From a virus: 64,000 bases of DNA. Of the stretch, positions 683 to 28,585 are shown piece after piece (position 1 is the stretch's first letter; each line of letters starts with the position of its first letter). The notes under the pieces are model-generated. The model saw only the letters and a program-made list of their open reading frames with translations. It was not told where the DNA came from and searched no databases. Both the position numbers and the translations under genes were made by a program. The stretch spans positions 96,001 through 160,000 of the IMG/VR virus record IMGVR_UViG_3300020183_000007; one strand, given 5' to 3'.

Positions 683-766
683 AGGCTGATGAGCCCAGCC
701 TGAAGAAAAGAGGAGTTCTCTCCTACGCATCCAGCGTAGGGGGAACTTCTTCTTTTGACAATAGAC
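683..766 (+). repeat. 84-bp intergenic module, copy 1 (copy 2 at 2035-2118): hairpin, terminator-like stem/T-tract, TTGACAATAGAC
   Basis: near-identical sequence at both positions. Confidence 0.9.
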
Positions 767-801
767 CTGCGAACAGCAAGTAACAGGTCGGAAAGGAAGC
801 C

Positions 802-1242
802 ATGAACGTCAATGCCATGAACCTTATCACCAAATACACAGGAGCCATCTCCATTGTTTGGGATGGTGAAGCGATTACTCAGGTAACCCTGGGTATCGGT
901 ACCAAGCACCAGAGGACGGTCTCCAGGTCGTACCTGGAGGACGGTCAAATCATCTTCTCACGGGAAGATGCCCCTTCCGGGACCATCTGGCCCTTGAGCA
1001 GGCAAGAGCTGGAGGAGATCGCCCTCATGGGTGGCGTCGTGATGCTCCATGCCGATGACCTGTATCGGCTCGTTGTCCTCCCTGAGTGGTGGACGGTGGA
1101 GTGCGAAATGGCCATTGAGGGTGAATGCCCTGAGTGGCCATTAGCAGAAGAAGAGTCCCCCAAGTCCCTTGGGGAAGTAATGCTTGAAATGATCCAGAGG
1201 ATCATTGAGGAGGCAGACGATCCAGATCAATGGGACAAGTAA
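802..1242 (+). CDS. hypothetical protein
   Basis: GGAAAGGAAG RBS, 146-aa ORF followed by terminator-like hairpin. Confidence 0.75.
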   Translation: MNVNAMNLITKYTGAISIVWDGEAITQVTLGIGTKHQRTVSRSYLEDGQIIFSREDAPSGTIWPLSRQELEEIALMGGVVMLHADDLYRLVVLPEWWTVECEMAIEGECPEWPLAEEESPKSLGEVMLEMIQRIIEEADDPDQWDK

Positions 1243-1250
1243 TGCTGAAA

Positions 1251-1289
1251 CCCCGGGGGTCGAAAGGTCCTCGGGGAATCTTTTTCTTT
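1251..1289 (+). terminator. repeated intrinsic terminator-like CCCCGGGG(A/G)TCGAAAGGTCCTCGGGGAA plus T-tract (also 3393, 7744 variant, 9818, 11437)
   Basis: GC stem-loop plus T run directly after stop codons; five related copies. Confidence 0.8.
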
Positions 1290-1330
1290 GAGGATAGGCC
1301 ATTCTCCTCTACGCAGAGCCTGAGCGTATA

Positions 1331-1436
1331 ATAAATCATGGGTGACGCAGCAGGAGCTAAATGCCTGACAGGTTATCTTACCTTGACAAAAGAGAAACGT
1401 AATCATCATGTTCGGTACGTTAAGCCGGACAACAAA
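1331..1436 (+). repeat. 106-bp leader module, copy 1 (copy 2 at 2959-3064); contains TTGACA and the CGGTACGTTAAGCCG hairpin
   Basis: near-identical duplication upstream of ORFs 1452 and 3081. Confidence 0.9.
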
Positions 1437-1451
1437 TGATTCGGAGGAATC

Positions 1452-2027
1452 ATGAACGAGTTCTTGTTCAAGGTCTTCGTGGTCTTTCTGACCACGCAGA
1501 CCAACCTAGCACGGGCCCCCTGGGCCAAGTGGCTAGGCCACTGCTGGGGGGAGACCACCCAGCACATCGTATACTACTTCGTCACGGGCAAGCACATGTG
1601 CTGCCCCTGGCGGGAAGTCCCACCGGTCGCATGTGGGCATGCGCCCACCTGCGACGAGTATTACTACCAGGCGCTGGACCTGGAGGTGGCCATGGAGGCC
1701 GCTTTCAAGTCCGGTGCCCTAGAAGAGTACACCTACGACAGCCTGATGGCTGCTCTAAGTGACCAGTACCTGGTGCTGAAATGCGCCAAGTTCTGGTTGG
1801 ACAAACAGGGCACCATCGCCGGTTTTCCGGCCATGGCCGCCCTGAACGAATTTTTGGAGGATAACAACATGATCCTCCGGGATAATGGCGGACTGATGTC
1901 GGGTGCCCCCCAGCATCAGTACGCCAAGAAGACATTGGTCTTCTCCTCGGACAAGGCGTTCGAGGAGGAGGCCAAGCTGTGGCTGAAGATCCACAGCGCG
2001 CAACTTAGGGGCTTCAACAACAGCTGA
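1452..2027 (+). CDS. hypothetical protein
   Basis: GGAGG RBS, 191-aa ORF. Confidence 0.75.
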   Translation: MNEFLFKVFVVFLTTQTNLARAPWAKWLGHCWGETTQHIVYYFVTGKHMCCPWREVPPVACGHAPTCDEYYYQALDLEVAMEAAFKSGALEEYTYDSLMAALSDQYLVLKCAKFWLDKQGTIAGFPAMAALNEFLEDNNMILRDNGGLMSGAPQHQYAKKTLVFSSDKAFEEEAKLWLKIHSAQLRGFNNS

Positions 2028-2153
2028 CCCAGAAAGGCTGATGAGCCCAGCCTGAAGAAGAGAGGAGTTCTCTCCTACGCAACCAGCGTAGGGGGAACTT
2101 CTTCTTTTGACAATAGACTTCTGAAACCAAAGTAAGAGGTCGGAAAGGTGACC

Positions 2154-2474
2154 ATGTTGGTCAATCTCACCCCCCACCAGATCACTCTGGTGGATGACCT
2201 GGGTAACATTATCCAGGTTGTTGAGCCGGAGGCAACTTCGGCTCGGTGCTCCTCGGAGCGCCAATTCGCCTTCGAGGCGGACAGCATCCGGGTCAACCGG
2301 ACTATGTTCGGAGAGGTTTCAGGCCTCCCGGACGAGGTAAACGGGACGTGGTACATCGTGTCACGTATCGTTGCCGAAGCGTCGGGCCGGTCGGACCTGA
2401 TCATCCCGGATGAAACAGTTCGGAATGCCGAAGGACAGATTATCGGCTGCAAGTCGTTCGCGACTTTGGGCTGA
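2154..2474 (+). CDS. conserved phage-type hypothetical protein (NLTPH...LP...YIVS family)
   Basis: LVNLTPHQITL, GLPDEVNGTWYIVSRIVA and DLIIPDETVRNAEGQIIGC motifs; GGAAAGG RBS. Confidence 0.75.
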   Translation: MLVNLTPHQITLVDDLGNIIQVVEPEATSARCSSERQFAFEADSIRVNRTMFGEVSGLPDEVNGTWYIVSRIVAEASGRSDLIIPDETVRNAEGQIIGCKSFATLG

Positions 2475-2512
2475 TCTGATGTCAAACAACAATTCACCGA
2501 AAGGAGGTGAAC

Positions 2513-2785
2513 ATGAAGAAGCATCCAAAGCGGGTGTACGTCTTTAGGCGTGCGCTCGTTCTGGTCCTGGCAGTTTTCTTTGCTGCAGCGGCCTACGGAA
2601 TGTACGAAGAGCTTACGGGCCCTTCGTACGAGTGCGAGCAAGCACCCGTGGTCGTTGGGCAGGGAGACACTCTCTGGAGGATCGCTGAAAAGCGATGCGA
2701 CGGAGATTTGCTGGAGGTCCGGTACAAGCTGGTGAAGTCCTACGGGACTAATATCCGGCCTGGACAGGTCATTCAGCTGCCCTGA
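2513..2785 (+). CDS. TM + LysM domain protein
   Basis: N-terminal hydrophobic helix, then VVVGQGDTLWRIAEKRC...IRPGQVIQLP LysM signature. Confidence 0.85.
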   Translation: MKKHPKRVYVFRRALVLVLAVFFAAAAYGMYEELTGPSYECEQAPVVVGQGDTLWRIAEKRCDGDLLEVRYKLVKSYGTNIRPGQVIQLP

Positions 2786-2796
2786 GACCAGAGCCT

Positions 2797-2928
2797 ACTG
2801 TGCACCTACAGACAACGATGATCTGTAGGGTGTAGCGGGGTTTTGCACCCTGGGAACAGAAGCGGGGGGGTCGGCAGTGGGCCGGCTCCCTGTTCTGTTT
2901 GAGGAAATCTCTTTTTTGAGGATAGACC
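2797..2928 (+). repeat. 132-bp structured module, copy 1 (copy 2 at 8074-8205)
   Basis: near-identical duplication ending in TTTTTTGAGGATAGACC. Confidence 0.9.
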
Positions 2929-3080
2929 ATTGTCCTTAGCGCAGAACCTGAGCGCTATATAAATCATGGGTGACGCAGCAGGAGCTAAATGCCTGACAGG
3001 TTATCTTACCTTGACAAAAGAGAAACGTAATCATTATGTTCGGTACGTTAAGCCGGACAACAAACGTTCACGGAGGAATC

Positions 3081-3347
3081 ATGAACGTAAACAAGAACAA
3101 GATCACCCTCGTGGTGACAGCAATCATCTGTGTGCTCCTCGTTCTGGAGCCCACCAGTGAGCTGACGGTGGGGATCATCTCCCTGCCGATCAAGGCCTTC
3201 TTCACGATCCTGGGCTTCGGCTTCGGCCTCGTGAACTGGCCCATGCTCACAGTCGTTGTGATTGGAGCGGGAATCGCCTTCGTGGCGAAAACCCGTACGG
3301 TCGATTGGACCGTCGTTAAGAGCTTCTTCCGCTCGGAAGAAAGCTGA
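3081..3347 (+). CDS. membrane protein
   Basis: GGAGG RBS; several hydrophobic segments. Confidence 0.7.
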   Translation: MNVNKNKITLVVTAIICVLLVLEPTSELTVGIISLPIKAFFTILGFGFGLVNWPMLTVVVIGAGIAFVAKTRTVDWTVVKSFFRSEES

Positions 3348-3414
3348 CTATACCTGGTGATGAGTCCACCAGATGAGCAATGGGATTGTTTTCCCCGGGG
3401 ATCGAAAGGTCCTC

Positions 3415-3470
3415 GGGGAAACTTTCTTTTTTACCAATAGGCCCCCGAACAACCGAAGGGGTCGGAAAGA
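3415..3470 (+). repeat. 56-bp module, copy 1 (identical copy at 3756-3811)
   Basis: GGGGAAACTTTCTTTTTTACCAATAGGCCCCCGAACAACCGAAGGGGTCGGAAAGA occurs twice. Confidence 0.9.
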
Positions 3471-3480
3471 GAGGAAGGTA

Positions 3481-3663
3481 ATGAACATCAAGGGCGTGGA
3501 GGTCCTCTCGTACGAGGAGTACGAGGGTATGCTCCATAAGGTGGTGACACGATACAAGGTCGTGGGCACGACCTTCGGGTTCAACCGCTTTCAGGCGGGC
3601 CCCTTCCAGACGAAGGGAGAGGCAGAGAAGTTCGCAGCTCTTCTGACTCTTCTGAGGGGCTGA
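3481..3663 (+). CDS. hypothetical protein
   Basis: RBS before ATG 3481; the track extension to 3373 runs through the repeat module. Confidence 0.65.
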   Translation: MNIKGVEVLSYEEYEGMLHKVVTRYKVVGTTFGFNRFQAGPFQTKGEAEKFAALLTLLRG

Positions 3664-3825
3664 CGAACTTTGTGGGGCACCGTCTTACCCGGCGCATCTG
3701 CTTAGACGGGTCATAGGGCAAGGATAGTTTTCCCCCGGGGTCTTAACGGACCCTGGGGGAAACTTTCTTTTTTACCAATAGGCCCCCGAACAACCGAAGG
3801 GGTCGGAAAGAAAGGAGAAATCCGC

Positions 3826-4203
3826 ATGAAAGTTGTAACATGGTTGTCGTCCACGATGGACCCAACCAAGGGAGTAGCTCCCGGTAAGTGCGTATTCACC
3901 GGTGAGTACCCAGGGGTGTTTTGTGTCCCCTTCGTAGAAGATGGGACGCCTGGAAAGGCACTCAATGATTTCTGGCACTCACCCCGGTATGCCAGAGATC
4001 TTCAAGTGATCCTTGAAGTTCCAGTGGAAAATCTCTTCTTCCGGCTCATGGGCCAAGAGAAGCCACTTCCGATTTACAAGGACGGACGAGTGGCCATCAA
4101 TCTCATCATCAATAAGTGTTTTGATGATGATAATGCAATAATCATCAAGAACTTCGATCCTGCGTGGATCGTTTCTATCAGAAAGGAAGAAAACAATGGA
4201 TAA
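3826..4203 (+). CDS. hypothetical protein
   Basis: AAAGGAGA RBS, 125 aa. Confidence 0.7.
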   Translation: MKVVTWLSSTMDPTKGVAPGKCVFTGEYPGVFCVPFVEDGTPGKALNDFWHSPRYARDLQVILEVPVENLFFRLMGQEKPLPIYKDGRVAINLIINKCFDDDNAIIIKNFDPAWIVSIRKEENNG

Positions 4204-5680
4204 CTACTCAGAGGGATGGAAGGCCCTCAAGGAGTTTGAGCAGAAGTTCTGCTCTGTCATGGCCTCCGAGGTCGAAATGTCGATCCGGGAGGGAGATTCT
4301 GAGGTAGTTGGCTCAGAATTGGTTTACAACCACTCCTACATGCCCATCCCCCAATACAGGAACGGAAGGGTGAGGGCCAACTTTGAGATGGGTGATAAAC
4401 TTCACCTGGTCCACCAGAGGCTGGAAACGCCCGGAAAGGGCAGGGTCAAGTGGGCTCTGCGAAGCTTCCACAGTATCCTCGAATGCGAGGATGGGCGCTA
4501 CATGCCCAAGAGTCGGTACCTGAAGGAAGTCAAATTCGCAGTCAATCCAACAGAGGATGGCTACCGATTTCAGATCCTGAAGACACAGGGTGGCAAAACT
4601 CGCGTTTACTGGGGGTATAACACCATTCATTCAGGACTCCTGCAAGAATTTGTCCATATCTCACTGCGAACAGCGGCAACGAAACTCATTGGTCAATATA
4701 TGGATCCGCAAAGGATTCATGCAGTGTTGCAGTGGTTTTCCTACGAACAAACAAAGTATCCCGAGTACTTTGCTAGTGACAACCCTGCGAGTCGTCAATC
4801 GCAAGAATTGCAACTTGGCGGACCGGGATGGTCCCGTATCCTGACCGGTAAGACCGGCGCAAAGGACATCCTGAACGGGATCTATGACCCCAAGGGTATC
4901 AGAAGGATTCCTAAGAATGCCTTCGGTGGCGTCGGGGAAATCAGGACTTTGGACCGTTTAGCCAAAGCGGTTTTCATGACTCGTGCGCTGCGCAGTCTTG
5001 ATCCGCACACCTTTGGCGAAGTTAGTAGTGTATGGCCAGACAGACCGATAAATTATAAGTATGAGGGATCATTTGAGAAGGCCGACAAGATTGATTGGCT
5101 TGTCAATAAACTTCCGAAACTCATTTCTGTAAAGAACATTCAGGAATGTCAGACTCCATATACATACATGGAAGACACAGTCAGGATGCTCAAGCAAATG
5201 CCACGAACACTGCGTTCTGCATGTTTGACTGAGATCCGCAGAAATGCAGCTAGAGGCATTGAATGGGCACACGACTTTGTCGCAACTGAACATGCAAAAG
5301 TTGGGAAAGAGAACAAGGACATCAATGTCAGTGCACTCAGTAAGTTTGAGGGAACTGTCAATGATGACATTGCGTGTGTAGTTCCCAAGTGCACTCACGA
5401 TTTGGTTCAGTGGGGCGCTGAGTACAACATTTGCATTGGCTCATATGCAGATGAAGTTTACAATGGCAGTACTTACTGCATGGGGTTCCAGAATCCCCAG
5501 ACTAAGACCTTTTATGGTTTTGCACAGGTCAACCCGTGGGACGGACATCTTCTCCAGCTATTGGGTAAGCACAACAACCATCTTCCTGATGTGGAGAGGC
5601 TTGCAATTGAGCGTTACCTGGTAACGCTTGGTGTCAATGTTGATAATTACTGGGGCAAGCCCCTTGTTGCACTTAACTAA
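4196..5680 (+). CDS. PcfJ-like domain protein, paralog 1
   Basis: C-terminal VVPKCTHDLVQWGAEYNICIGSYADEVYNG resembles the PcfJ motif (P...L..EG...hCV.SY); strong similarity to 6295-7734. Confidence 0.65.
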   Translation: MDNYSEGWKALKEFEQKFCSVMASEVEMSIREGDSEVVGSELVYNHSYMPIPQYRNGRVRANFEMGDKLHLVHQRLETPGKGRVKWALRSFHSILECEDGRYMPKSRYLKEVKFAVNPTEDGYRFQILKTQGGKTRVYWGYNTIHSGLLQEFVHISLRTAATKLIGQYMDPQRIHAVLQWFSYEQTKYPEYFASDNPASRQSQELQLGGPGWSRILTGKTGAKDILNGIYDPKGIRRIPKNAFGGVGEIRTLDRLAKAVFMTRALRSLDPHTFGEVSSVWPDRPINYKYEGSFEKADKIDWLVNKLPKLISVKNIQECQTPYTYMEDTVRMLKQMPRTLRSACLTEIRRNAARGIEWAHDFVATEHAKVGKENKDINVSALSKFEGTVNDDIACVVPKCTHDLVQWGAEYNICIGSYADEVYNGSTYCMGFQNPQTKTFYGFAQVNPWDGHLLQLLGKHNNHLPDVERLAIERYLVTLGVNVDNYWGKPLVALN

Positions 5681-5688
5681 GTCTGGCA

Positions 5689-5740
5689 GCCCCTACCCCT
5701 TAACTGGGGAGGCATAGTGGTTCGATTCCACATAGGGGCA
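5689..5740 (+). other. 52-nt truncated tRNA-like element
   Basis: GCCCCTA/TAGGGGC acceptor-like stem, GTGG-TTCGATT-CCAC T-arm, a single CCCC/GGGG hairpin between them. Confidence 0.45.
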
Positions 5741-5781
5741 CTGTTCGCAATCCCGCGGACTATAACATGATTGGAGAAATC

Positions 5782-6117
5782 ATGAAGAAGAAAGTTGAGT
5801 GGTGCGGATGCATGGACGTCCGTTCACCGAAAGAAGGGTTCAAGGACATCTTCTCGAAAGAGTTGGTGGACGGGAAACCACGAGGTGAACTTTGGGAGCT
5901 GATGGAAGTGAAGAGTTGGGAAGAGTTCAAGGATGAACTCTCCGACATTTCCTGGGGAATTGGCCGAATCATTGGCGGATTCCGTGGCAAGGCGTACGTG
6001 CGTGTGCCTGGGGATCGAATTCACTACGAGAAGGTTGTGAACCGAATTGAGGATTATGGCTGCATCCGCAGCAAGAGGTTCTTGATTGACGGACACTGCC
6101 CGAACGAGGGTAAGTAA
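5782..6117 (+). CDS. hypothetical protein
   Basis: GGAGA RBS before ATG 5782. Confidence 0.65.
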   Translation: MKKKVEWCGCMDVRSPKEGFKDIFSKELVDGKPRGELWELMEVKSWEEFKDELSDISWGIGRIIGGFRGKAYVRVPGDRIHYEKVVNRIEDYGCIRSKRFLIDGHCPNEGK

Positions 6118-6192
6118 AGAAAGAAAGGTGGCCCCGGGGAATTCGCCTCGGGGCCTTTGACTGAAAGGAGAACAGTAAGACGAACTACCGTA

Positions 6193-6257
6193 CTGATCAG
6201 AAAAAAGGGGTCTGTTCCCGGGGAGAAATCCCTGGGAACTTTCTTTTTTGAGGTTAG
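6193..6257 (+). repeat. ~65-bp terminator module, copy 1 (copy 2 at 10779-10841)
   Basis: CTGATCAGAAAAA..GGGTCTGTTCCCGGGGAGAAATCCCTGGGAACTT..TTTTTTGAGG(T/A)TAG occurs twice. Confidence 0.85.
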
Positions 6258-6294
6258 ACCTCTGAAACCAAAGTAAGAGGTCGGAAAGGTCGTC

Positions 6295-7734
6295 ATGACC
6301 GATTTCTACTCCAAGGGCTGGAAGGCCCTCAAGCAGTTCGAGCAGCAGTTCTGCTCGATCCCTGAGCGTGATGCCCAAGACACCATACTATCAGCACCCT
6401 TTCAGACATACTATCGGGGCGATACCGATGGGTCGACATTGGTGCACAACACCTCGTACCTGCCCACACCAGGGCCTTATGGTGTCTGTATGTGGGAAAC
6501 CGGTGACAGGATACACCTGATCCACACGCGGCTCGACCTTCAGCCGGCTGGCAAGGTCAAGTGGGCGCTGCGAAGCTTCCACGGCATCTTGCAAATGGAT
6601 CCGACCATAGGGCGCTACATGCCCAAGAGTCGGTACCTGAAGGAAGTCAAATTCGCAGTCAATCCAACAGAGGATGGCTACCGCTTCCAGATTTTGAAGA
6701 CACAGGGTGGCAGAACCTGTGTCTATTGGGGATATGATCCGGAGAAGTTGATGCAAGAAATCGGCGATCCGGAGATGTGGAGAGCGGCGCGCAACGTCGT
6801 TTACAAGTATCTGATTCCGGATCAGATGTATAAAGTGTTGCAATGGTTTCGTTCGGAAAACCCCGTAGAGGAAACCGAACAATTGCGACTTGGTGGACCG
6901 GGATGGTCACGGATTTTGACTGGTAAGACCGGCGCAAAGGACATCCTCAACGGGGTCTATGACCCGAAGGGTGTCAGAAGGATTCCTAAGAACGCCTTTG
7001 GTGGTGTAGGGGAAATTCGAACCCTTAACGCTTTGGCAAAAGCGGTCTTCATAACTCGTGCGTGGCGCAGTCTTGATCCGCACACCTTTGGCGAAGTTAG
7101 CAATGCTTTGTCAAAGGATTTTCGTCTTGTCTATAATGGGTCATTTGAACAGGCTGACAAAATTGATTGGCTTGTCAGTAGAATTCCCAAACTGCCTATC
7201 GGTAGGGAGGAAAACTTTGAATCTATTGACCTTTTGTCCATTGAGGACATGATCACAATGCTCAAGCAAATGCCCCGAGCTTTGCGTTCTGCGTGTTTGG
7301 CTGAAATACGCAGAAGCGCAAATCGGGGTATGCAGTGGGCACACGATTACGTTGTCCTTGAGTTTAACAAACTGAAAACAGCCGACAAGGTAATCGAGCA
7401 GGATGAGCTCAGCCGGTTCGAGGGAACTGTCAACGATGACATGATTTGCGTGGTCCCGAAGTCCACCCATGATTTGGTTCAGTGGGGGACTGAGTACAAC
7501 ATCTGTATCGGTTCATACGCAGATCGCGTGTACCGTGGAAACACCTTGTGTATGGGGTTCCAGAACCCTCACACCAAGAGTTTCTACGGTTTTGCGGAGG
7601 TCAATCCGCAGAACAAGAAGCTTGTCCAACTGCTGGGCAAGTACAACCACAGTCTTGATAATCTGGACAAGCTTGCCATTGAGTGTTATCTAACCTCGAA
7701 GGGAGTTGGTGTTGATTTCTATCGGGGTAAATAA
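6295..7734 (+). CDS. PcfJ-like domain protein, paralog 2
   Basis: long near-identical blocks shared with 4196-5680, e.g. GRYMPKSRYLKEVKFAVNPTEDGYRFQILKTQGG. Confidence 0.65.
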   Translation: MTDFYSKGWKALKQFEQQFCSIPERDAQDTILSAPFQTYYRGDTDGSTLVHNTSYLPTPGPYGVCMWETGDRIHLIHTRLDLQPAGKVKWALRSFHGILQMDPTIGRYMPKSRYLKEVKFAVNPTEDGYRFQILKTQGGRTCVYWGYDPEKLMQEIGDPEMWRAARNVVYKYLIPDQMYKVLQWFRSENPVEETEQLRLGGPGWSRILTGKTGAKDILNGVYDPKGVRRIPKNAFGGVGEIRTLNALAKAVFITRAWRSLDPHTFGEVSNALSKDFRLVYNGSFEQADKIDWLVSRIPKLPIGREENFESIDLLSIEDMITMLKQMPRALRSACLAEIRRSANRGMQWAHDYVVLEFNKLKTADKVIEQDELSRFEGTVNDDMICVVPKSTHDLVQWGTEYNICIGSYADRVYRGNTLCMGFQNPHTKSFYGFAEVNPQNKKLVQLLGKYNHSLDNLDKLAIECYLTSKGVGVDFYRGK

Positions 7735-7837
7735 CAAGTTTTTCCCCGGGGATCGGCAGAAATGCTGGTCCTCGGGGAAACTTTCTTTATAGGCATCCAG
7801 CCATGTCCACTAAACCAAAGAAAGGAGGTGAACAAAC

Positions 7838-8062
7838 GTGTTCAACACACGAATCCCTCTTTCGAACGGATCGTACATCTCGTTGGCCCAAAACGAAATG
7901 TGCGTCCTCAGAGAGGAGTTCGTCCCCACTCTGGAGTGGGCGGGTGTCGAAACGCAGGATGATATCCTGCGGTTCGATAACCTGTCAACACTCCGGACGT
8001 TGTTGGATAAGGCGGAAGCCTGGAGTCTGAAGACTCCGGATCCGTCTTCCGACAACTCGTGA
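7838..8062 (+). CDS. hypothetical protein
   Basis: AAAGGAGGTG RBS, GTG start. Confidence 0.6.
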   Translation: MFNTRIPLSNGSYISLAQNEMCVLREEFVPTLEWAGVETQDDILRFDNLSTLRTLLDKAEAWSLKTPDPSSDNS

Positions 8063-8272
8063 CGACGAACGCAACTGCGCACCTGCAGACAACGATGATC
8101 TGTAGGGTGTGCCGGGGTTATCCACCCTGGGAACAGAAGCGGGGGGGTCGGCAGTGGGCCGGCTCCCTGTTCTGTTTGAGGAAATCTCTTTTTTGAGGAT
8201 AGACCGACCGGGTCTACCTACGGTCCCAGCACAACAGGATCTAACCAATCCGCTGGGAGAAAGGGAGGCATC

Positions 8273-8545
8273 ATGCAGAAGCTGCCCAAGCGAGTGTACG
8301 TCAAAAGGCGTATCCTCGTGGCTGCTCTCACGGTGTTCTTTCTGATGGCCGGATGTGGCATGATCAAGAAAGTGACGAGCCCCTCGTTCACTTGCCCGGA
8401 TCGCACCCACACGGTTCTTCAGGGGGAAAGTCTCTGGACCATTGCTGAAAAGCATTGCGACGGAGACCTGCTCGCTGTACGTTACCATCTGACACAGGCC
8501 TACGGGCCCGTGATTCAGCCCGGTGACGTCATCGAGCTGCCTTGA
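8273..8545 (+). CDS. TM + LysM domain protein (paralog of 2513-2785)
   Basis: HTVLQGESLWTIAEKHC...IQPGDVIELP. Confidence 0.85.
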   Translation: MQKLPKRVYVKRRILVAALTVFFLMAGCGMIKKVTSPSFTCPDRTHTVLQGESLWTIAEKHCDGDLLAVRYHLTQAYGPVIQPGDVIELP

Positions 8546-8757
8546 CGGCAAGTCGGCTCACTGAACCAGCAGTAATCTGGGAAGTCGCAACACACGACTA
8601 AAGATAATAACTCATATGAAGTTGGCATTGGTTACTTGCCTTATATAAGTATGAGTGAATTATTATGTGTTTTATTTGTGGGGAAACCCCGGGACTCGTA
8701 TCGATCCGAAGGGCACACCGATGGGTGTGTAATTCGTGCGAGTTCTGGGGTTTTCTC

Positions 8758-9019
8758 TTTGAGGATAGACCGCATCCTCAAGGTGACCGTGCTTTAGTCA
8801 CACGCCCCTCGTTAGGGGAAGGGCCGTAGGGCCAAGACATCGCACAACTACCGACCCACAACCATGTGAGTGGGACCTAATGGGGAACTGATGGGAAAAC
8901 TGAGCCACATATTCGCTCAGCCAGAAGGAAACCAGAAGGTGAGAAAATCATGAGAAACGTGGAATCAGCCCTGTCCGGTACGTTAAGCCGAGACACCAAA
9001 GGAGGAGGTCCGCATGGAC
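8758..9019 (+). repeat. 262-bp leader, copy 1 (copy 2 at 9855-10116), extends through the first two codons of the downstream ORF
   Basis: essentially identical duplication; one A/G difference seen in AAATCATG(A/G)GAAAC. Confidence 0.95.
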
Positions 9020-9343
9020 CTGATCATAAAATTCGTCACCTACGTGGTGGCGGGTAAGTACAACGACCTGGTGGGTTTCGGCCCCCAGATCGTCGTCAAC
9101 GGAAAGCCGATCACGCTCGAGGCGTGGGTCCCCCGCAACAAGAAGGCTCGCAAGGGCTCCGAAGTCACGGGAACTCCCACCATCGAGGTTGAGGAGGGCA
9201 CTCAAATCACCAAGTCCTACACAAAGGACGGGGTGGAGGTGCTCCTGCCGGTCTGGAAGTTGCGGGTTGTGGTAAGCGGGGACTACGAGTTCTCGCAGCC
9301 GAAAACCGTGTCCCTCCAGGATTTCTTCAGGGACAACGTCTGA
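9014..9343 (+). CDS. hypothetical protein
   Basis: GGAGGAGG RBS; ends FFRDNV. Confidence 0.75.
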   Translation: MDLIIKFVTYVVAGKYNDLVGFGPQIVVNGKPITLEAWVPRNKKARKGSEVTGTPTIEVEEGTQITKSYTKDGVEVLLPVWKLRVVVSGDYEFSQPKTVSLQDFFRDNV

Positions 9344-9434
9344 CACCAATTCCGACGGTAAGCGGTCAACCGTCGGACAAGGAGGAGCCCCCTATCAAGG
9401 GGGTTTTCTCTTTGAGGATAGACCATTGGGGTCA
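9323..9434 (+). repeat. ~112-bp trailer, copy 1 (copy 2 at 10453-10565), starts inside the last codons of the ORF
   Basis: TTCTTCAGGGACAACG...CGACGGTAAGCGGTCAACCGTCGG...GAGGATAGACCATTGGGGTCA occurs twice. Confidence 0.9.
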
Positions 9435-9459
9435 ATCTACAACAGAAAGGACAAGGGTG

Positions 9460-9810
9460 ATGATGTGTAATCACTTTTTAATGCTGCAGATGATGCAGCA
9501 GGCGGTGGAGGTTCTTCGTGAAAGGAAGAGTCCTCCAAAGAAGTGTGTTTCCCCAACCACCGGTAAGTTGATGGTGGAGTGGGGCATCTGGCGTAAGTTC
9601 TACGCCAAGATGGGCGTTTCTTCAGTAGGAAAGCCTTACATCATGATCTCGTTCCCGAAGCCTGTAACTAGGCACGAGGATGGGCATGAATACGGCCACG
9701 ATTACATCATGTGGCTGAATCCAAAGCAAGGGTCCATGACCTGCCCGAATTGCAGGAAAAAGTTGATTGACAGCAAGCTCGTTAATGAGCTAAGTGAGGT
9801 TGTTCAATAG
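9460..9810 (+). CDS. hypothetical protein with C-terminal CxxC
   Basis: GAAAGG RBS; CPNC. Confidence 0.65.
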   Translation: MMCNHFLMLQMMQQAVEVLRERKSPPKKCVSPTTGKLMVEWGIWRKFYAKMGVSSVGKPYIMISFPKPVTRHEDGHEYGHDYIMWLNPKQGSMTCPNCRKKLIDSKLVNELSEVVQ

Positions 9811-10110
9811 AGGTTTTCCCCGGGGATCGAAAGGTCCTCGGGGAAACTTTCTTTTTTGAGGATAGACCGCATCCTCAAGGTGACCGTGCTTTAGTCACAC
9901 GCCCCTCGTTAGGGGAAGGGCCGTAGGGCCAAGACATCGCACAACTACCGACCCACAACCATGTGAGTGGGACCTAATGGGGAACTGATGGGAAAACTGA
10001 GCCACATATTCGCTCAGCCAGAAGGAAACCAGAAGGTGAGAAAATCATGGGAAACGTGGAATCAGCCCTGTCCGGTACGTTAAGCCGAGACACCAAAGGA
10101 GGAGGTCCGC

Positions 10111-10473
10111 ATGGACTACATCCACACCCTCATGGACATCTGGCGGGCGATCTGCTGGTCCATCCGCTTCGGCGGAGAAGGTCAGCAGAAACTCGACAAG
10201 AAGGGGCGGGAGTTCACCTCCTATTCCTTCGTCACCGAGGGCAACAGGGGTGTCCAGCCCAAGTCCGTGGTCGTGTACACGGGCAAGAAGGGGAACATCA
10301 CCGTGATGGCTAACATCAGCGCCCTGCGCAATGATGGCCAGCGGTACCCCAGGTCTGTCAAGTTCCTTCTCAAGAACTTGAACGAGGAGAAGTTCTTCCT
10401 CGTATGCGGTAAGACCCGCATGTACGACCACTACAAAGTGGATTATCCGGAGTTCTTCAGGGACAACGCCTGA
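10111..10473 (+). CDS. hypothetical protein
   Basis: GGAGGAGG RBS; ends FFRDNA. Confidence 0.75.
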   Translation: MDYIHTLMDIWRAICWSIRFGGEGQQKLDKKGREFTSYSFVTEGNRGVQPKSVVVYTGKKGNITVMANISALRNDGQRYPRSVKFLLKNLNEEKFFLVCGKTRMYDHYKVDYPEFFRDNA

Positions 10474-10587
10474 TCCACAATTTCGACGGTAAGCGGTCAA
10501 CCGTCGGACAAGGAGGAGCCCCCTATCAAGGGGGTTTTCTCTTTGAGGATAGACCATTGGGGTCAGTCCAAAACAGAAAGGAAAGTC

Positions 10588-10782
10588 ATGGCAAAGAAAA
10601 TCATGAAGCTGGGCGAAAACGCCGGAGAGTGCGTGATCGATCAAAAAGATCGGTACACGGTTCTCACCTTCGATCAGAAGGAAGCAGCCGACAAGTTCGC
10701 CAAGAGCAAGGGCGTTCAGGTTCAGACGAAGATCGTCGGCGCAGCGAAGGTTCGTTCCTTCGTCGTCATCGTCAAGAGCTGA
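10588..10782 (+). CDS. small basic hypothetical protein
   Basis: GAAAGG RBS before ATG 10588. Confidence 0.65.
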   Translation: MAKKIMKLGENAGECVIDQKDRYTVLTFDQKEAADKFAKSKGVQVQTKIVGAAKVRSFVVIVKS

Positions 10783-10881
10783 TCAGAAAAAGGGTCTGTT
10801 CCCGGGGAGAAATCCCTGGGAACTTCCTTTTTTGAGGATAGGCTACTGGGGCTAGTCCAAAAAGAAAGGTAAGGTTATGTC

Positions 10882-11418
10882 ATGGATAAAATGAAGAAAT
10901 TCTTCACAATCGTCGGAACTGGGTCTCGCAGCCTGGTGGAAGACGAAGAAAAGTTCAACAAGGTGCTTGCACACCTCACTGAACTTCTTGGCAAGGCAAA
11001 AGCCAAGCATGGAGAGAACCTTCTGGTCATCTCTGGCATGGCTGAGGGTTTCGATGAAGCCCTTGCCAAGGCTGCAATGGCAAACAGCGTTCAGCTGCTG
11101 GCAGCTATCCCCAATCGGGGGTACAGCAAGTATTACTGGAAGGATCACAGTATGACTGGTTTCGACCGGTACTCCTCTTTCCAGGAGCTGGCAAGGTATG
11201 CCAATGAAACAGGTGGGGTTGTTTACACCTGTGGATGCATCAAGGATCAACCCACAAAGTGTGGACACTGGGATGGGCGGATCTACAATTTCAAGCGAAA
11301 TGAATGGATGCTTGAGCGTGCCGACATTGTCTGGGTTTACAACCCGACGAGCAAGGGGACTGCTCACGCATACGGACTGGCTCGCAAAGCTGGTATTCGC
11401 ACCCACATCATTCAGTAA
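10882..11418 (+). CDS. SLOG superfamily (YspA/DprA-like) protein
   Basis: VGTGSR, VISGMAEGFDEALAKAA, RNEWMLERAD and SKGTAHAYGLARKAGI motifs. Confidence 0.75.
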   Translation: MDKMKKFFTIVGTGSRSLVEDEEKFNKVLAHLTELLGKAKAKHGENLLVISGMAEGFDEALAKAAMANSVQLLAAIPNRGYSKYYWKDHSMTGFDRYSSFQELARYANETGGVVYTCGCIKDQPTKCGHWDGRIYNFKRNEWMLERADIVWVYNPTSKGTAHAYGLARKAGIRTHIIQ

Positions 11419-11552
11419 AGGAGGACAAATGGTCGTCCCCGGGGATCGAAAGGTCCTCGGGGAAACTTTTCGTCTTTTGAAAGAGATAGTCCCAGAAATA
11501 TTAATTAATACCATAGTCCTTGAAACAAAAGTAAAGGATAGAAAGGAGAGTC

Positions 11553-11759
11553 ATGGCTTACAACTATGACAATCGCAATTGCAATAAGTGTGGTGAGTTT
11601 CACTACAAAGGTGAACTAAGGTACCACGGGTTCATACCCGGCAAGGGAGACTATTTCACCTGCAAGAAATGTGATGAAGTAAAAGCTGCCATCAAGAAGA
11701 ATGTGAAAATCAAGAAGGAACGAGAGGCCTTGAAGGCTTCTCAGCCTACATTGTTCTGA
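11553..11759 (+). CDS. zinc-ribbon protein
   Basis: CNKC...CKKC; GAAAGGAG RBS. Confidence 0.65.
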   Translation: MAYNYDNRNCNKCGEFHYKGELRYHGFIPGKGDYFTCKKCDEVKAAIKKNVKIKKEREALKASQPTLF

Positions 11760-11951
11760 TGCCAACGTCTGGTCCCGGGGGGTGTTTACTCCCCGGGATA
11801 AGGACTTTAACAAAGTGATAGATTTATAATTAAAGTTATATAGTTTTTGGACTAGAACCCTAGTCTTTAGTTTGCGGGCATGACTAGTCCGTATTCTAAA
11901 CTCGAGTTAGGGACAGACACAAGGTCGTCCTTTGAGCCCTAGGAGGGTGCT

Positions 11952-12353
11952 ATGAAGACATACCAAATCAACCATGCGAGTTGGGTCGTGGGGCCCTTCG
12001 GGGAGTTCGGGACCCTGCTTGCGAACCCGGTCGGGCACCGTGAGGAACAGCAGGTGGACAAGATTGCCATCAGGGTCAACGACAAGGAGACCTACAAGAC
12101 CGCACAAAGCTGGCTGGCGGAGCTGAAGGACACGGACTTGGTGCTGACCGCTACCGCGGAGTTCAACCCGGTGCACCTCAGCAACGGTGACATCGGATTC
12201 ACCAAGGATCGCTGGGAGGACAAGAAGACCGGCGAGAACCGCGTGCAGGCTTCGCTGTACATCGGGTTCGCCACCGAGCCCAAGTGGGACATCATCAAGA
12301 AGCCGAAGGTCAACACCCTCGGCAACCTCAAGGAGCTTCGGCGCCCCGAGTGA
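11952..12353 (+). CDS. hypothetical protein
   Basis: AGGAGG RBS; followed by hairpin GTCGGGGACCCTTCGGGGTTCCCGGC. Confidence 0.75.
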   Translation: MKTYQINHASWVVGPFGEFGTLLANPVGHREEQQVDKIAIRVNDKETYKTAQSWLAELKDTDLVLTATAEFNPVHLSNGDIGFTKDRWEDKKTGENRVQASLYIGFATEPKWDIIKKPKVNTLGNLKELRRPE

Positions 12354-12528
12354 GAGGCACAAGAGCAGTCGGGGACCCTTCGGGGTTCCCGGCTGTCTCA
12401 GCCTCAAAAAATACCATGTAGTTCCTTCAGTTCTAGCAGGGTCGTTGAATACGCGAGGTTTCGTTGAATACGCGAGGTTTCAGAAAGTTCTAAAAACTCA
12501 GTAGACCTACAAACGCTGGGAGGCGATC

Positions 12529-12702
12529 ATGACAAACAAGGAAATTCTGCAGGCTGCTCAAGCAATTCTAAATGAAATGCGAAAGCGTGAAGGCGGAGAG
12601 TCTCACAACATCTACGAGAAAGCAGAAGTTTTATTCATGGCAATCAGCAAAGCCTATCCCTGTGATATGGGAGAAGTGAAAGAAAAAGGAGGCTCACAAT
12701 GA
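12529..12702 (+). CDS. small hypothetical protein (57 aa)
   Basis: GGGAGG RBS; read manually, below track cutoff. Confidence 0.6.
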   Translation: MTNKEILQAAQAILNEMRKREGGESHNIYEKAEVLFMAISKAYPCDMGEVKEKGGSQ

Positions 12703-12842
12703 GCGACATTCAGGAAGCCCTCGAACAAAAGATCAAAGAGCTCCGCGAGATGGCACGAAATGCCAACTCCATCGCGGAGTCCCTCCGCCTCCACGCTGAG
12801 GCGTGCATCCTGGAGGAGCGACTCATCCACCTGGATGACTGA
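12699..12842 (+). CDS. small coiled-coil protein (47 aa)
   Basis: AAAGGAGG RBS, ATGA overlap with the previous stop. Confidence 0.6.
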   Translation: MSDIQEALEQKIKELREMARNANSIAESLRLHAEACILEERLIHLDD

Positions 12843-12945
12843 TCTCCCCCTTGCTGAGAGTTCCTCGGTATACCTTCGGGTGTATCGGGGAACTCTCCGC
12901 GTAAAAAAGCTCTAAAAACCCACTAGACTCATAAGGAGTACTGCA

Positions 12946-13266
12946 ATGACAACTTTCATTTGGACGTGCATAGCGTTTGCGCTTGGTTTCTTAAGCTACA
13001 TAGGATATTGCCAAGTCCGACATATTGTTTCAGCGCGACTCAACTACGGCAAGCCCGTGTTGCTTGACGGCGAAAAGATTGGTTCAGTCATTTCGCTCCG
13101 TCACGACGGTTGCAAACGATACGTATTTGTGGATTATGATTATTGCTTGAATACTGATGTGCTTTATTACACCGCAGACGATGCCACAAATGCAATCAAG
13201 TGTGCGTATATCGCAATCATAAACAAGCGAAACCGAACAGCAACAAAACTCCACCACGCCATCTGA
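12946..13266 (+). CDS. membrane-anchored hypothetical protein
   Basis: AAGGAG RBS; N-terminal TM segment. Confidence 0.65.
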   Translation: MTTFIWTCIAFALGFLSYIGYCQVRHIVSARLNYGKPVLLDGEKIGSVISLRHDGCKRYVFVDYDYCLNTDVLYYTADDATNAIKCAYIAIINKRNRTATKLHHAI

Positions 13267-13812
13267 TTCCAAACTCCACTAGGGGAGTATAAACCGATTT
13301 AAGCCTAGTGCGTTCCCCAGGTAACCCTGGGGAGGTATCTGAGTATCCACCTACATTCCAGTGTAGGCCCTCGCTCAAAGCCCCGGCGTTGAGAAAAATG
13401 GATAGAGATCTGGATAATCTCTATGGAATATTATAACATTTGACGGTCCCCAAGTGTTATAAGAACTCACTGTATCAGGCGGAAACCTGATCATATAGTG
13501 GATACAGGTATAATGTGGTATCAGTTCTGCATTATACCCACTAACGAACTGAAGGTCTCTCCGTAGATAGCTGACCAAAGCATTAGGGCATACCCCGATG
13601 TAGGATTGACGAATCCATTCTACCGTTGAAAATAATCTCAGGCAACGTATTACCTGAGTACCGGGAGTTCCCAGTCCCCGAAGGATGTCAGAGATTGTAC
13701 CAATATTGGTATAATCAACTGGGCGGTTCTAAAATTTTCCCTACCTTTGCATGGCGCCTCCCGGTGGTCCTGCTCGCTCCTATACCAGCGAGTGGGCCAC
13801 TGGCGCCATGAA
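13267..13812 (+). ncRNA. candidate large structured ncRNA (~550 nt)
   Basis: no credible ORF; many hairpins (13278-13310, 13315-13332, 13402-13424, 13431-13462, 13750-13810 and others); strand inferred from flanking genes. Confidence 0.5.
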
Positions 13813-13872
13813 TTTCACATTCTAAAAAATACTGCAAAGTCCTCAAATCTACAGCACAAACAAAGGAGCGTA

Positions 13873-14079
13873 ATGCGCGAACAAGCAAGAGCCCGTCCCA
13901 GATGTTCAGTAGAAACCTTAAACTTGCTACAGCAAGTCGAAATCGCTATTAGATTCTGGGAATCAGAAGGCGAATTAACGCACTTGATTAAAGCAATGGC
14001 AGAAAAAGAGCAACTTCTCAAGCAAGCGCTTGAAGAATCTCGTAACTGGGCCAAAGCTAATACTGCTATAAATATCTAA
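13873..14079 (+). CDS. hypothetical protein
   Basis: AAGGAG RBS before ATG 13873. Confidence 0.6.
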   Translation: MREQARARPRCSVETLNLLQQVEIAIRFWESEGELTHLIKAMAEKEQLLKQALEESRNWAKANTAINI

Positions 14080-14452
14080 TGTTTGAATTTCTATTTGGAT
14101 GGTTCTTTGATCTCATTGATTCCATCTTTGACGACAATTAAAGTAAAACAAAACACAGAAAGTAGACACGCATGAAACTCAATATCATTAAGAACACTGG
14201 CAAGATCACTGGTAAGTTGGTATCTGCAACCAAAGCAGCACCTACAAAGACCAAGAGTGGTCTGGCTTTCGCAAAAGACCAGTTCAAGAGTGGTTTCAAC
14301 GCCGGCGTTTCGTCCGATAGTTGACCATACAGAAACCTGGAGTTGGGTCTATCACAGGCCCTTCTCCAGGTTTCAGTAAATAAATAAAATTCAATAGTCC
14401 CCTTAGAAAAAACTTATTAGTAGATTTAGAAAAAGGAAGTGTATTTAACGTT

Positions 14453-15472
14453 ATGAGTAACTATACAGATTTCAATATTGATTTTGATTTATTCTCTGCC
14501 GTGGCCGACACGCCAGAGATGTTCGAATCAACTGGCAAGACCAGCACGCTTCGTGCAGGTCGCGAAATCTCCTTCAAAGGCAGTATCAACGGCATTGAAG
14601 TCCCAGCATCTGCTATTCTGCACGATGCCAAACTGACTCGCCTGACCCTACTGAAGCAAACCAGCCCCAACACCAACAACGAATATTTCTTGGTGACTGG
14701 TATCATGCGCCCTGTGCGTATGGACCTGTTTGTCACGGTGGATGGCGAAAAGATGAACCTCATTGATGTTCTTCTCCTTGCCGTAAACGAAAAGTCCATG
14801 AACAAGATCACTCGTGATCAGTTCTTGGATACTGCCCGCAAGATTGGTTTGAACTTGACGGACGGTATGCCTTACTTCTTCCAGCAGTTTGGTGCAAACA
14901 TCAACGGCTGGACGAAGGCTCGTGAGGCTTTCGTTGCCGCAGGTGCCAAAGATGTCATCGGTAAAATGAACAACCGTGGTCGCATTGAGGCTGCGTATCA
15001 ACACGATGAAGGTGTTCCGGTAACTTCGTTTGAAGTTGGCAGTGTCGACCGCGAAAAGTCTCGCACCAAGCAGGGCTTTCTAAATCTGATTGACGCAACT
15101 GTCCATAACTTTGAGCGCATCATCCAACTACGCAAGGAGAGCAAGCTTCTCCGTGTGAAAGTGGACAGCTCAAGCGGTTGGAGCCAAGAGAAGCAACAGA
15201 AAGCTCGCGATCATGCTGACCTTCTCGCAGCGATGAGCCGTCAGTGGGTATCCAACTGGTCCGGTGCGCAACAGCGTATCGTTGTCCAGCCCAATGGCAA
15301 GCAGGAAACCCAGAATGTTTGGGATCCGGTGAATGCTCCGTGTGGTCGGTTCACAATGGTTGTTGACAATTCTCCCGTCGAAGTTGATCTTTGGACCAAC
15401 TCGGCTCGTGCGAATACGTCAAATACAACTGTTGGCGGTTCCGACAACGGCGACGAGCCCGACCCCTTCTAA
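14453..15472 (+). CDS. hypothetical protein (339 aa, acidic C-terminal tail ending DPF)
   Basis: long ORF; the acidic tail is reminiscent of ssDNA-binding/annealing proteins but no family was recognised. Confidence 0.8.
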   Translation: MSNYTDFNIDFDLFSAVADTPEMFESTGKTSTLRAGREISFKGSINGIEVPASAILHDAKLTRLTLLKQTSPNTNNEYFLVTGIMRPVRMDLFVTVDGEKMNLIDVLLLAVNEKSMNKITRDQFLDTARKIGLNLTDGMPYFFQQFGANINGWTKAREAFVAAGAKDVIGKMNNRGRIEAAYQHDEGVPVTSFEVGSVDREKSRTKQGFLNLIDATVHNFERIIQLRKESKLLRVKVDSSSGWSQEKQQKARDHADLLAAMSRQWVSNWSGAQQRIVVQPNGKQETQNVWDPVNAPCGRFTMVVDNSPVEVDLWTNSARANTSNTTVGGSDNGDEPDPF

Positions 15473-15481
15473 CCCTCAAAT

Positions 15482-15510
15482 GAGTTTGCCCGTTCTCATC
15501 AAAAACGGGC
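15482..15510 (+). promoter_or_regulatory. 29-nt conserved hairpin upstream of tRNA-like RNAs (second copy 28310-28338)
   Basis: GAGTTTGCCCGTTCTCATCAAAAACGGGC vs GAGTTTGTCCGTTCTCGTCAAAAACGGAC; compensatory C-G/T-A change in the stem. Confidence 0.6.
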
Positions 15511-15514
15511 GCTA

Positions 15515-15589
15515 GGGGATGACAGGCGTCGACACAAGGAAAAGCCAAAGTGCACCTTGTGGAACTGGGTTCGAATCCCAGCATCTCCA
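15515..15589 (+). ncRNA. tmRNA-like tRNA-like domain without an mRNA-like domain (75 nt)
   Basis: 5' GGGGATGACAGGCGTCGAC resembles tmRNA 5' ends; acceptor GGGGATG/CATCTCC-A with G3:U70; T-arm CTGGG-TTCGAAT-CCCAG; only a CACAAGG/CCTTGTG hairpin in between. Confidence 0.65.
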
Positions 15590-15713
15590 CTGGGGGACTG
15601 CGTGTATAACGCGTCTTAAACGACACTGTGGTGCGCCCCAAATTCACTCAAATATACACTTATTTTTAATTTCATACAAAAGAGAAAAAACACAGTCAAA
15701 AGGAACAGTCTTT

Positions 15714-15980
15714 ATGAATCAGAACAACATGATCAATTTTGTTACGCTTACGGGCCTTGACGACGAAAGAACTGAAGTTAACCCAGCCAGCATCGTAATG
15801 ATGCAAAGAAGCACCTACGCCCAGTTGCCATGCACTAATGTGTGGCTAATGTTGGGCATCCCATATAAAGTAGTGTGTCGCGAGACACCAGAAGAAATTG
15901 TTCAATTGCAGATGGATGCAATTGGTAAACTCGTGAAAAAGTGCATCAATGTCTTTGAAGAATTAGAAAAGGAGATGTGA
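15714..15980 (+). CDS. FlbD-like family protein, paralog 1
   Basis: FVTLTGLD...EVNPASIVMM...VCRETPEEIV matches the FlbD pattern; paralog at 18185. Confidence 0.55.
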   Translation: MNQNNMINFVTLTGLDDERTEVNPASIVMMQRSTYAQLPCTNVWLMLGIPYKVVCRETPEEIVQLQMDAIGKLVKKCINVFEELEKEM

Positions 15981-16134
15981 TGGAATTTCATATTTGCGAA
16001 GCAGTAACATGCCGGCACAAATGCGAAAAAGAAGGGTGTGACAATCACATCCTGTATCACGACGAACCGTACTGTTTCACACACAGTCCGGATTCAGGCT
16101 CATCATTCAAAAACTATGACTCTAGAAAGGGAGG

Positions 16135-28246: not shown

Positions 28247-28347
28247 TTTAAATTTGCATACACGAACTTTACCTACTCAATCTGGTTGTTAGTTACTAAC
28301 CACACAGACGAGTTTGTCCGTTCTCGTCAAAAACGGACTTTACCTAC

Positions 28348-28451
28348 GGAGTACGGGATGTCCTAGCCAAAAGTCTAGCAAACACGCTGAGTAATAGAAG
28401 CAATCCGCAGACGCTGTGCTTTAGTAGATGGTTCGACTCCATCTAGCTCCA
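28348..28451 (+). other. atypical tRNA-like element (~104 nt)
   Basis: 3' TAGATGG-TTCGACT-CCATCTA-GCTCCA pairing with 5' GGAGT; interior is not a canonical cloverleaf. Confidence 0.35.
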
Positions 28452-28585
28452 CTTATTTTTGCAATAGACAAACGGCCCGCTCAAAATTGTTGAAATTCTC
28501 TTTAGTTCAATCAAAGTTTTAAAACAAATTCATTTGAATTGCTTTCTCAAAACGAAATAATTATTCAAAAACGAAAGGAAAATTT

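Follow-up and report, generated by a model that had tools for sequence, protein, structure and literature searches.

A phage mini-tmRNA reduced to its tRNA-like domain, a probable competitor of host trans-translation, lies behind a compact pseudoknot

Between two protein genes of a large phage lies a stretch of 75 nt that reads like the two ends of a tmRNA joined to each other with the mRNA-like part left out. Whether this element is a tmRNA, a tRNA, one piece of a split tmRNA or a relic, and what a tmRNA without a tag might do for a phage, are the questions raised by the locus. The sequence-only reading had taken it for a mini tmRNA consisting of an alanine-acceptor tRNA-like domain (TLD), and had proposed that it serves as a decoy for SmpB and AlaRS or as a tag-less ribosome rescuer. 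The window analysed here is the 64,000-nt stretch formed by bases 96001-160000 of a 179.6-kb IMG/VR record whose completeness is estimated at 85%. The boundaries proposed for the RNA hold exactly, with G1 at 15515 and A73 at 15589, and its parts and immediate flanks are as follows.

15511..15514, + strand: spacer GCUA, 4 nt, between an upstream pseudoknot and G1 (read from the sequence)
15515..15589, + strand: TLD-only (tag-less) mini-tmRNA, 75 nt, G1 to A73 (Rfam RF00023, covariance model R1, MFE fold)
15515-15521 with 15582-15588, + strand: acceptor stem, 7 bp, GGGGAUG / CAUCUCC (alignment to tmRNA)
15517 with 15584, + strand: G3:U70; the discriminator A73 is at 15589
15522..15532, + strand: degenerate D-region analogue, 11 nt, with GG and UCGA motifs (Rfam tmRNA consensus alignment)
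15533-15539 with 15555-15561, + strand: helix P2, 7 bp, CACAAGG / CCUUGUG, with a 15-nt apical loop at 15540-15554
15562-15564, + strand: junction GAA
15565..15581, + strand: T arm with CUGGG, UUCGAAU loop and CCCAG; 5-bp stem (tmRNA alignment)
15590..15647, + strand: 3' trailer, CUG followed by a GC-rich hairpin region (missing in the alignment of relatives)

Several observations identify this RNA as the tRNA-like domain of a tmRNA. With Infernal, the Rfam tmRNA model RF00023 gives 54.6 bits over 15515-15592 (E ~1e-19), above its gathering score of 47, and the alignment runs over model positions 1-374 with 310 internal positions skipped, in agreement with the earlier proposal that a single hairpin replaces the pseudoknot and tag region. 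P2 and its loop thus stand where tmRNA has its mRNA-like and pseudoknot domain of ~300 nt. The MFE fold of the 75 nt is exactly the TLD structure (-26.2 kcal/mol, z = -2.6), with no D-stem, and all 19 of the 19 stem pairs are intact. The features that mark tmRNA are present, namely G3:U70, A73, a degenerate D region, a junction of the GGAC type and the T arm; the D-region analogue corresponds to the part of tmRNA that SmpB contacts, and the junction takes the variant form GGAA rather than the commoner GGAC, GAA being found in 8 of 58 rows of the family alignment described below. G3:U70 together with A73 bears out the alanine identity claimed at the outset, and the CUG that follows A73 means that CCA is not encoded, also as first read. 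Pseudoknots PK1-PK4 are absent between the TLD halves, the interior being deleted in the Rfam alignment, and there is no resume codon, tag reading frame or stop, with only the 15-nt loop between the strands of P2 and no tag reported by ARAGORN. The fold of the 3' trailer (-18.1 kcal/mol, z = -1.5) is not significant. An interpretation of the apical loop as a relic of helix 2 was dropped, as there was no convincing similarity to the full-length tmRNA of Streptomyces phage Sushi23.

The architecture is shared by a large family of viral RNAs. The viral contigs of IMG/VR were searched with a pattern in which only GGGG, GA, GG, UCGAC and the T loop were fixed and the T loop followed UCGAC at a distance of 15-45 nt; the search returned 74 loci with 56 distinct RNAs. 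The GG and UCGAC motifs are invariant across the family, but the pattern itself fixed both. Other elements were left free by the pattern and are nevertheless found in every RNA: a 3' strand that complements the 5' acceptor strand, a U at position 70 facing G3, and A73 (A73 in 56/56; G3:U70 in 58/58 distinct aligned rows). Covariance model R1 was built from 24 viral homologues, with the window RNA and that of mycobacteriophage DS6A both left out, and so the 73.2 bits that it gives to the window RNA lie far above chance. In the R1-based alignment of all matches, 97.6% of cells are paired, compared with 47-56% in controls with slid partners; changes on both sides are seen in 14 of the 19 pairs, and none of 500 shuffles reaches the observed values. 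All seven pairs of P2 show changes on both sides, and in the T stem four of five pairs covary with 100% of cells paired. The fold, the membership in this family and the selection on structure are therefore matters of direct observation.

Family members occur on contigs of 29% to 67% GC, have a tRNA within 1 kb at only 12 of the 74 loci, and encode CCA in 14 of 56 cases. Most carry an N-A-A-R bulge on the 5' side above P2, followed by a mini-hairpin of 3-5 bp, and a minority have a plain apical loop of 2-9 nt. The window RNA, whose nearest family members are 78% identical, belongs with L011, L012, L019, L031, L037 and L062 to a subclass with the apex GCC-R-AAG-Y-GC, in which covariation of R with Y (G:C, A:U, G:U) suggests a tiny triloop hairpin. 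The form found in L012 and L019 is on contigs of 64-65% GC at three of its four loci. When ORFs up to 3 kb from 99 mini-tmRNA loci were clustered, no recurrent neighbour protein emerged, the largest cluster accompanying six distinct RNAs. The same pattern, applied to bacterial and archaeal contigs with one genome per species, gave about ten strong R1 matches under labels from several phyla; MAG contigs, in many cases short, account for most of them, and two come from isolates, Actinomadura violacea and Cellulomonas massiliensis, where they sit on large scaffolds. At four loci on alphaproteobacterial MAG contigs (L083, L084, L089, L091) the pattern matches 45-nt stretches that R1 does not recognise, and since these lie inside homologous ORFs they are probably coding sequence, not mini-tmRNAs.

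Tag-less mini-tmRNAs escape the usual annotation tools, and ARAGORN misses the copy in the window, calling neither a tRNA nor a tmRNA at 15515-15589. It does call a tmRNA at five family loci. The three of these calls that were inspected (L007:2976-3318, L021:10221-10616, L071:1042-1390) were all rejected because a real 3' domain had been joined to a bogus upstream 5' domain; the tags at these loci are implausible and carry the remark 'Tag not identified'. Where counts of phage tmRNAs in the literature depend on ARAGORN, they may contain such artefacts.

An alanine-type acceptor stem and T arm would also be expected of an ordinary tRNA-Ala and of the piece of a two-piece (permuted) tmRNA that carries the acceptor, and both readings are almost certainly wrong here. 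The anticodon arm of a tRNA is missing, ARAGORN is silent, and among related Rfam families the tmRNA model, not that of tRNA, scores best at the site, which upholds the earlier assignment in the Infernal comparison that had been suggested for it. R1 in turn leaves all seven true tRNAs in the window unmatched at E < 0.01. The permuted-tmRNA model RF04321 has a cut-off of 47 bits but reaches only 14.3 at the site, and its best score over all 179.6 kb of the record is 18.8; the two halves are contiguous and in the standard 5'-to-3' order, and a search of the record for a separate mRNA-like piece found no other piece of tmRNA. A two-piece tmRNA is refuted for the 179.6 kb of the record, with ~15% of the genome lying outside it. 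The model of mitochondrial CDS-less tmRNA, RF02544, finds no match in the record at E up to 1. BLAST of the locus gave no match, that of the 78-nt RNA gave only T-arm fragments in cultured phages, and that against E. coli genomes gave nothing, a query this short being uninformative.

The TLD-only type of tmRNA is already known and is common in phages, and the window RNA is a further member of it. Mycobacteriophage DS6A was listed with a 'TLD only' tmRNA by Hudson, Lau and Williams in 2014 (PMC4131195), and the same RNA appears in the tmRNA database paper of 2025 (PMC11915505; tmRNA Website tmID 11587 / Phage__Mycobacterium.9). R1 finds it at 28478-28560 of DS6A with 65.4 bits, and as both RNAs are matched by a model that contains neither, the window RNA is a member of the DS6A kind. 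The two have in common the 7-bp acceptor stem, G3:U70, A73, the GG and UCGAC D region, the T arm, a single P2 with a short apex, the absence of a tag frame and an unencoded CCA. They differ at the apex, which in DS6A is the mini-hairpin CCGCACGCGG and in the window the 15-nt loop of its subclass, and in the GGAA junction and the preceding pseudoknot, both of which the window RNA has in this comparison. The phages themselves are unrelated: DS6A is a 60.6-kb mycobacteriophage with a tyrosine integrase, whereas the window phage has ~180-200 kb at 38% GC. As reported in PMC4131195, which cites Mao et al. 2009, a similar TLD molecule strongly inhibits tmRNA in E. coli whether it can be charged or not, perhaps through titration of SmpB; PMC4131195 and PMC11915505 disagree over the identity of the inhibitor tested, which is either the DS6A RNA or 'a similar molecule'. 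The roles proposed at the outset for the window RNA, decoy for SmpB or tag-less rescuer, are those already published for the RNA of DS6A (PMC4131195, PMC11915505).

Relevant comparisons come also from laboratory constructs, organelles and other phages. The TLD crystallised with SmpB (T. thermophilus, PDB 2CZJ) consists of 25 nt of the 5' end and 34 nt of the 3' end joined by a loop (PMC3985003). Such a fragment suffices for SmpB binding (PMC3985003) and, in the account of Mao et al. 2009 given in PMC4131195, inhibits tmRNA in vivo. Engineered TLD fragments thus share the architecture of the window RNA, ~25 nt of 5' and ~34 nt of 3' end plus a loop; they are laboratory constructs, whereas the window RNA is a natural gene whose binding to SmpB is predicted. 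CDS-less tmRNAs of jakobid and other mitochondria (RF02544) and of Mallomonadaceae plastids, the latter of ~65 bp (PMC11915505, PMC3590771), are like the window RNA natural, reduced to the tRNA-like domain and devoid of a tag frame. However, the organellar forms replace the full tmRNA and have a dedicated SmpB, whereas the phage RNA would work beside the tmRNA of the host. Full-length phage tmRNAs, as in Bxz1-type mycobacteriophages, Bacillus phage G and Streptomyces phage Sushi23 (annotated length 281 nt), and the two-piece tmRNAs of marine phages (PMC4131195, PMC9004378), complete the picture; the full-length forms share phage coding and the TLD ends with the window RNA but have retained what it lacks, namely the resume codon, the tag frame and the pseudoknots.

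The genome that carries the RNA has 37.9% GC over the whole record and eight tRNA genes, seven of them true tRNAs within the window. Its helicase is at best 37.7% identical to a known sequence, from an Acidobacteria phage, which is too low to infer a host. Every gene in the region of the mini-tmRNA is on the + strand, and the genes on either side of it are the following.

14453..15472, + strand: upstream gene, 339 aa, stop TAA at 15470-15472 (ORF list)
15714..15980, + strand: downstream gene, 88 aa, with an AAGGAA ribosome-binding site upstream

Neither product belongs to a Pfam or PHROG family. The 339-aa protein has counterparts with 89-90% identity in three related phage contigs of ~78-194 kb. 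For the downstream gene the likeliest start is 15714, preceded by its AAGGAA ribosome-binding site; a 5' extension of its ORF to 15519 overlaps the mini-tmRNA and is without family support, as are the ORFs of 153 aa (+) and 98 aa (-) that overlap the RNA. A scan for sigma-70-like promoters and intrinsic terminators found none near the mini-tmRNA gene, and a search of the whole phage record found no SmpB gene. No integrase is near, the closest gene of mobile-element type being a transposase-type ORF 9 kb off (309 aa, window 24707-25636, PHROG transposase family, E = 3.5e-39).

Immediately upstream of the mini-tmRNA is a second structured element, copies of which recur in the window and in related contigs.

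15480..15510, + strand: compact H-type pseudoknot, S1 15480-15484/15495-15499, S2 15488-15494/15504-15510
L106:1752-1782, L107:5033-5066, L111:1309-1339, L112:9353-9383: copies of the pseudoknot in relatives

The pseudoknot combines a 5-bp S1 and a 7-bp S2 with a UUU loop and a second loop rich in A, and 4 nt separate it from G1. Six distinct copies are known, two in the window (15480-15510 and 28308-28338) and four in relatives. Across these six, 97.2% of cells are paired and changes on both sides occur in 5 of 12 pairs and in both stems; no shuffle of 500 is as good, and slid partners give values near zero. Both pseudoknots of the window, and copies of the L106 and L111 type, lie 4-9 nt upstream of a tRNA-like RNA. 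As an observation in its own right, the second window pseudoknot stands 9 nt before an element at 28348-28453 of 106 nt, which is again tRNA-like and anticodon-less, with a 5-bp acceptor stem, A3:U70 and a 7-bp T stem; a ParB-like gene lies upstream of it, and at the 3' end it is similar to the 3' end of the RNA described next.

The closest relatives of the phage retain the pseudoknot and the downstream flank, and between them carry in place of the mini-tmRNA a different, AT-rich RNA of 133-138 nt.

L106:1789-1923: RNA in the slot of a relative
L107:5385-5521: RNA in the slot of a relative
L108:1785-1917: RNA in the slot of a relative
L112:9704-9841: RNA in the slot of a relative
L111, L113, L114 and L117: further copies

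This RNA has an acceptor stem of the GGGGCUA type, G3:U70, a T arm and covarying internal hairpins; it is without UCGAC and GGAC, has G73 in four of eight copies, and is matched neither by R1 nor by any Rfam family. Since the content of the slot differs and its flanks are kept, some 135 nt (15511-15647) behave as a swapped cassette, to which the 3' trailer at 15590-15647, missing in the relatives, also belongs. In itself the window copy of the mini-tmRNA is ordinary, and the local interest and novelty are in its link to the pseudoknot and in the swappable slot.

What might such an RNA do? We consider it probable that the locus is a genuine phage gene for a TLD-only, tag-less tmRNA of the DS6A kind, which competes with host tmRNA in ribosome rescue and tagging. 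The biochemical steps of this mechanism we infer from homology, conservation and gene context. The RNA would be transcribed within a polycistronic RNA of the + strand, as suggested by the lack of a promoter or terminator nearby. Both tmRNA and tRNA have their 5' ends processed by RNase P (PMC3985003), and the host enzyme would cleave after 15514, directly before G1 and 4 nt past the pseudoknot. The 3' trailer would then be trimmed and CCA attached by the host nucleotidyltransferase. Encoded CCA is absent in six of the eight phage tRNAs, which indicates that the host adds it, and so an unencoded CCA is no obstacle for the mini-tmRNA. Host AlaRS would alanylate the RNA through G3:U70 and A73, to judge from their strict conservation, and host SmpB would be bound by the degenerate D region and the T arm, as homology predicts. 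Because there is neither an SmpB gene in the phage nor a recurrent neighbour gene in the family, the mini-tmRNA must rely on host factors. Having no resume codon or tag frame, it would rival host tmRNA for SmpB, EF-Tu and stalled ribosomes, and the competition would block SsrA tagging and normal trans-translation during infection.

The alanine identity bears most directly on how such competition would work. That G3:U70 and A73 are invariant beside pairs that covary freely indicates that charging is under selection, and its strictness suggests that the mini-tmRNA must be charged; it may be an SmpB sponge, a poison that enters the ribosome or a tag-free rescuer. A pure sponge for SmpB has no need of G3:U70 and A73, given that inhibition was seen 'whether or not chargeable' in the wording of PMC4131195; charging and entry into the ribosome therefore seem to matter. 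From sequence comparison we favour a competitor that would reach stalled ribosomes as an alanylated RNA together with SmpB and EF-Tu.

A productive version of the same encounter has to be weighed against competition. Here the alanylated mini-tmRNA with SmpB and EF-Tu would enter ribosomes stalled on broken mRNAs, such as those cut by RNases of host or phage, take over the nascent chain and free the ribosome without a degradation tag, so that phage translation gains and the host is not merely poisoned. The conservation of G3:U70 (58/58) and A73 (56/56), with U70 and A73 unconstrained by the search, points to selection for alanylation and fits such a role as well; mitochondria with a CDS-less tmRNA have retained SmpB as well, and the pair presumably helps to deal with incomplete mRNAs (PMC11915505), and in the accepted mechanism the A site takes up an alanylated TLD bound to SmpB, to which the peptide is then passed (PMC3985003). 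However, an RNA with neither resume nor stop codon has no known route to termination and recycling after peptidyl transfer and would need a second factor, either an ArfB-like factor or peptidyl-tRNA hydrolase, and the sole experiment cited for this type of molecule, in PMC4131195 and PMC11915505, shows inhibition and not rescue. We regard productive rescue as unlikely, though the selection for charging leaves room for it. The remaining question is whether the locus has a function at all, for it could be non-functional, either what is left of a full-length phage tmRNA after decay or a piece of host ssrA carried at an attachment site. Phages that integrate into ssrA do carry 3' fragments of it (PMC9004378), and with the nearest family member only 78% identical there is no near-identical homologue to display purifying selection directly. 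Yet a remnant would hardly keep 19/19 stem pairs; no integrase is near, both TLD halves are in the correct order, unlike an attachment-site fragment, and 56 distinct sequences share precisely this architecture and show compensatory changes in it. Decay is on these grounds very improbable.

A further alternative shifts the function from the RNA to the transcript in front of it. The element may be mainly a handle that acts in cis, where the RNase P cut leaves the upstream mRNA ending 4 nt past a protective pseudoknot and the small RNA is a by-product; in that case one RNase P substrate would do as well as another. The pseudoknot at 15480-15510 is backed by covariation and recurs 4-9 nt before three different tRNA-like RNAs, the slot RNA is exchanged with flanks that are still 85-90% alike, and neither a terminator nor a promoter is close by; further processing elements, a Pistol ribozyme (13273-13340) and a 52-nt tRNA mimic (5689-5740), are in the same operon region. 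In addition, as the slot RNA of the relatives is without UCGAC and GGAC, conservation at this locus may reflect a substrate of RNase P and not SmpB binding. On the other hand, RNase P needs none of G3:U70, A73, UCGAC and the GGAA junction, all of which are intact here, and a strict motif search found the pseudoknot at none of the other 74 viral mini-tmRNA loci, from which it follows that the RNA family is maintained independently of it. A mainly cis-acting role is in our judgement unlikely, but a processing handle has to be taken seriously as a rival or an added function; the pseudoknot itself is a candidate cap for the 3' end of the upstream mRNA after RNase P cleavage, and a role as a processing handle can coexist with one in trans. 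The two might be united in a modular device of 110 nt, made of the pseudoknot and an interchangeable RNase P substrate, that serves both to form mRNA 3' ends and to manipulate the host; we see this combination as conceivable but rather doubtful. If it is true, the upstream mRNA gains a pseudoknot-capped 3' end, the released and alanylated mini-tmRNA acts on ribosome rescue in the host, and the RNA cassette of the pseudoknot module can be exchanged between phages.

MALAT1 and mascRNA form a eukaryotic module in which a long transcript terminates in a triple helix followed by a tRNA-like substrate of RNase P. The comparison with the window concerns only the way of working, in that a structured element is placed just upstream of a tRNA-like RNA in both, in the window a predicted RNase P substrate; the window has an H-type pseudoknot where MALAT1 has a triple helix, and the mascRNA model, with only 16.7 bits, stays below its cut-off of 42.5. 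Within the literature searched, tag-less mini-tmRNAs are represented by a single phage example, and the family points to a widespread phage strategy against bacterial trans-translation, which is also an antibiotic target.

Other features of the surrounding DNA were observed. Positions 1-16000 of the window (genome 96-112 kb) form an island of 48-54% GC in a genome of ~35% GC, as does genome 165-168 kb, and the end of the first island approximately coincides with the position of the mini-tmRNA. Low-GC DNA on either side of the island argues against a simple end-to-end assembly chimera. It encodes two PcfJ-like proteins (4196-5680 and 6295-7734), and its remaining ORFs are of no recognised kind. 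The 52-nt tRNA mimic at 5689-5740 has a 7-bp acceptor stem, a small hairpin, a T arm and no anticodon arm, and folds with -24.3 kcal/mol (z = -2.6). The Pistol self-cleaving ribozyme at 13273-13340 (+) scores 48 bits with a cut-off of 34.5 and is located 2.2 kb upstream of the mini-tmRNA in the same string of + strand genes; its counterpart in a relative (L107:2897-2964) scores 65.3 bits. At least the last ~2.5 kb of the island, from the Pistol ribozyme to the 339-aa gene, is common to the relatives.
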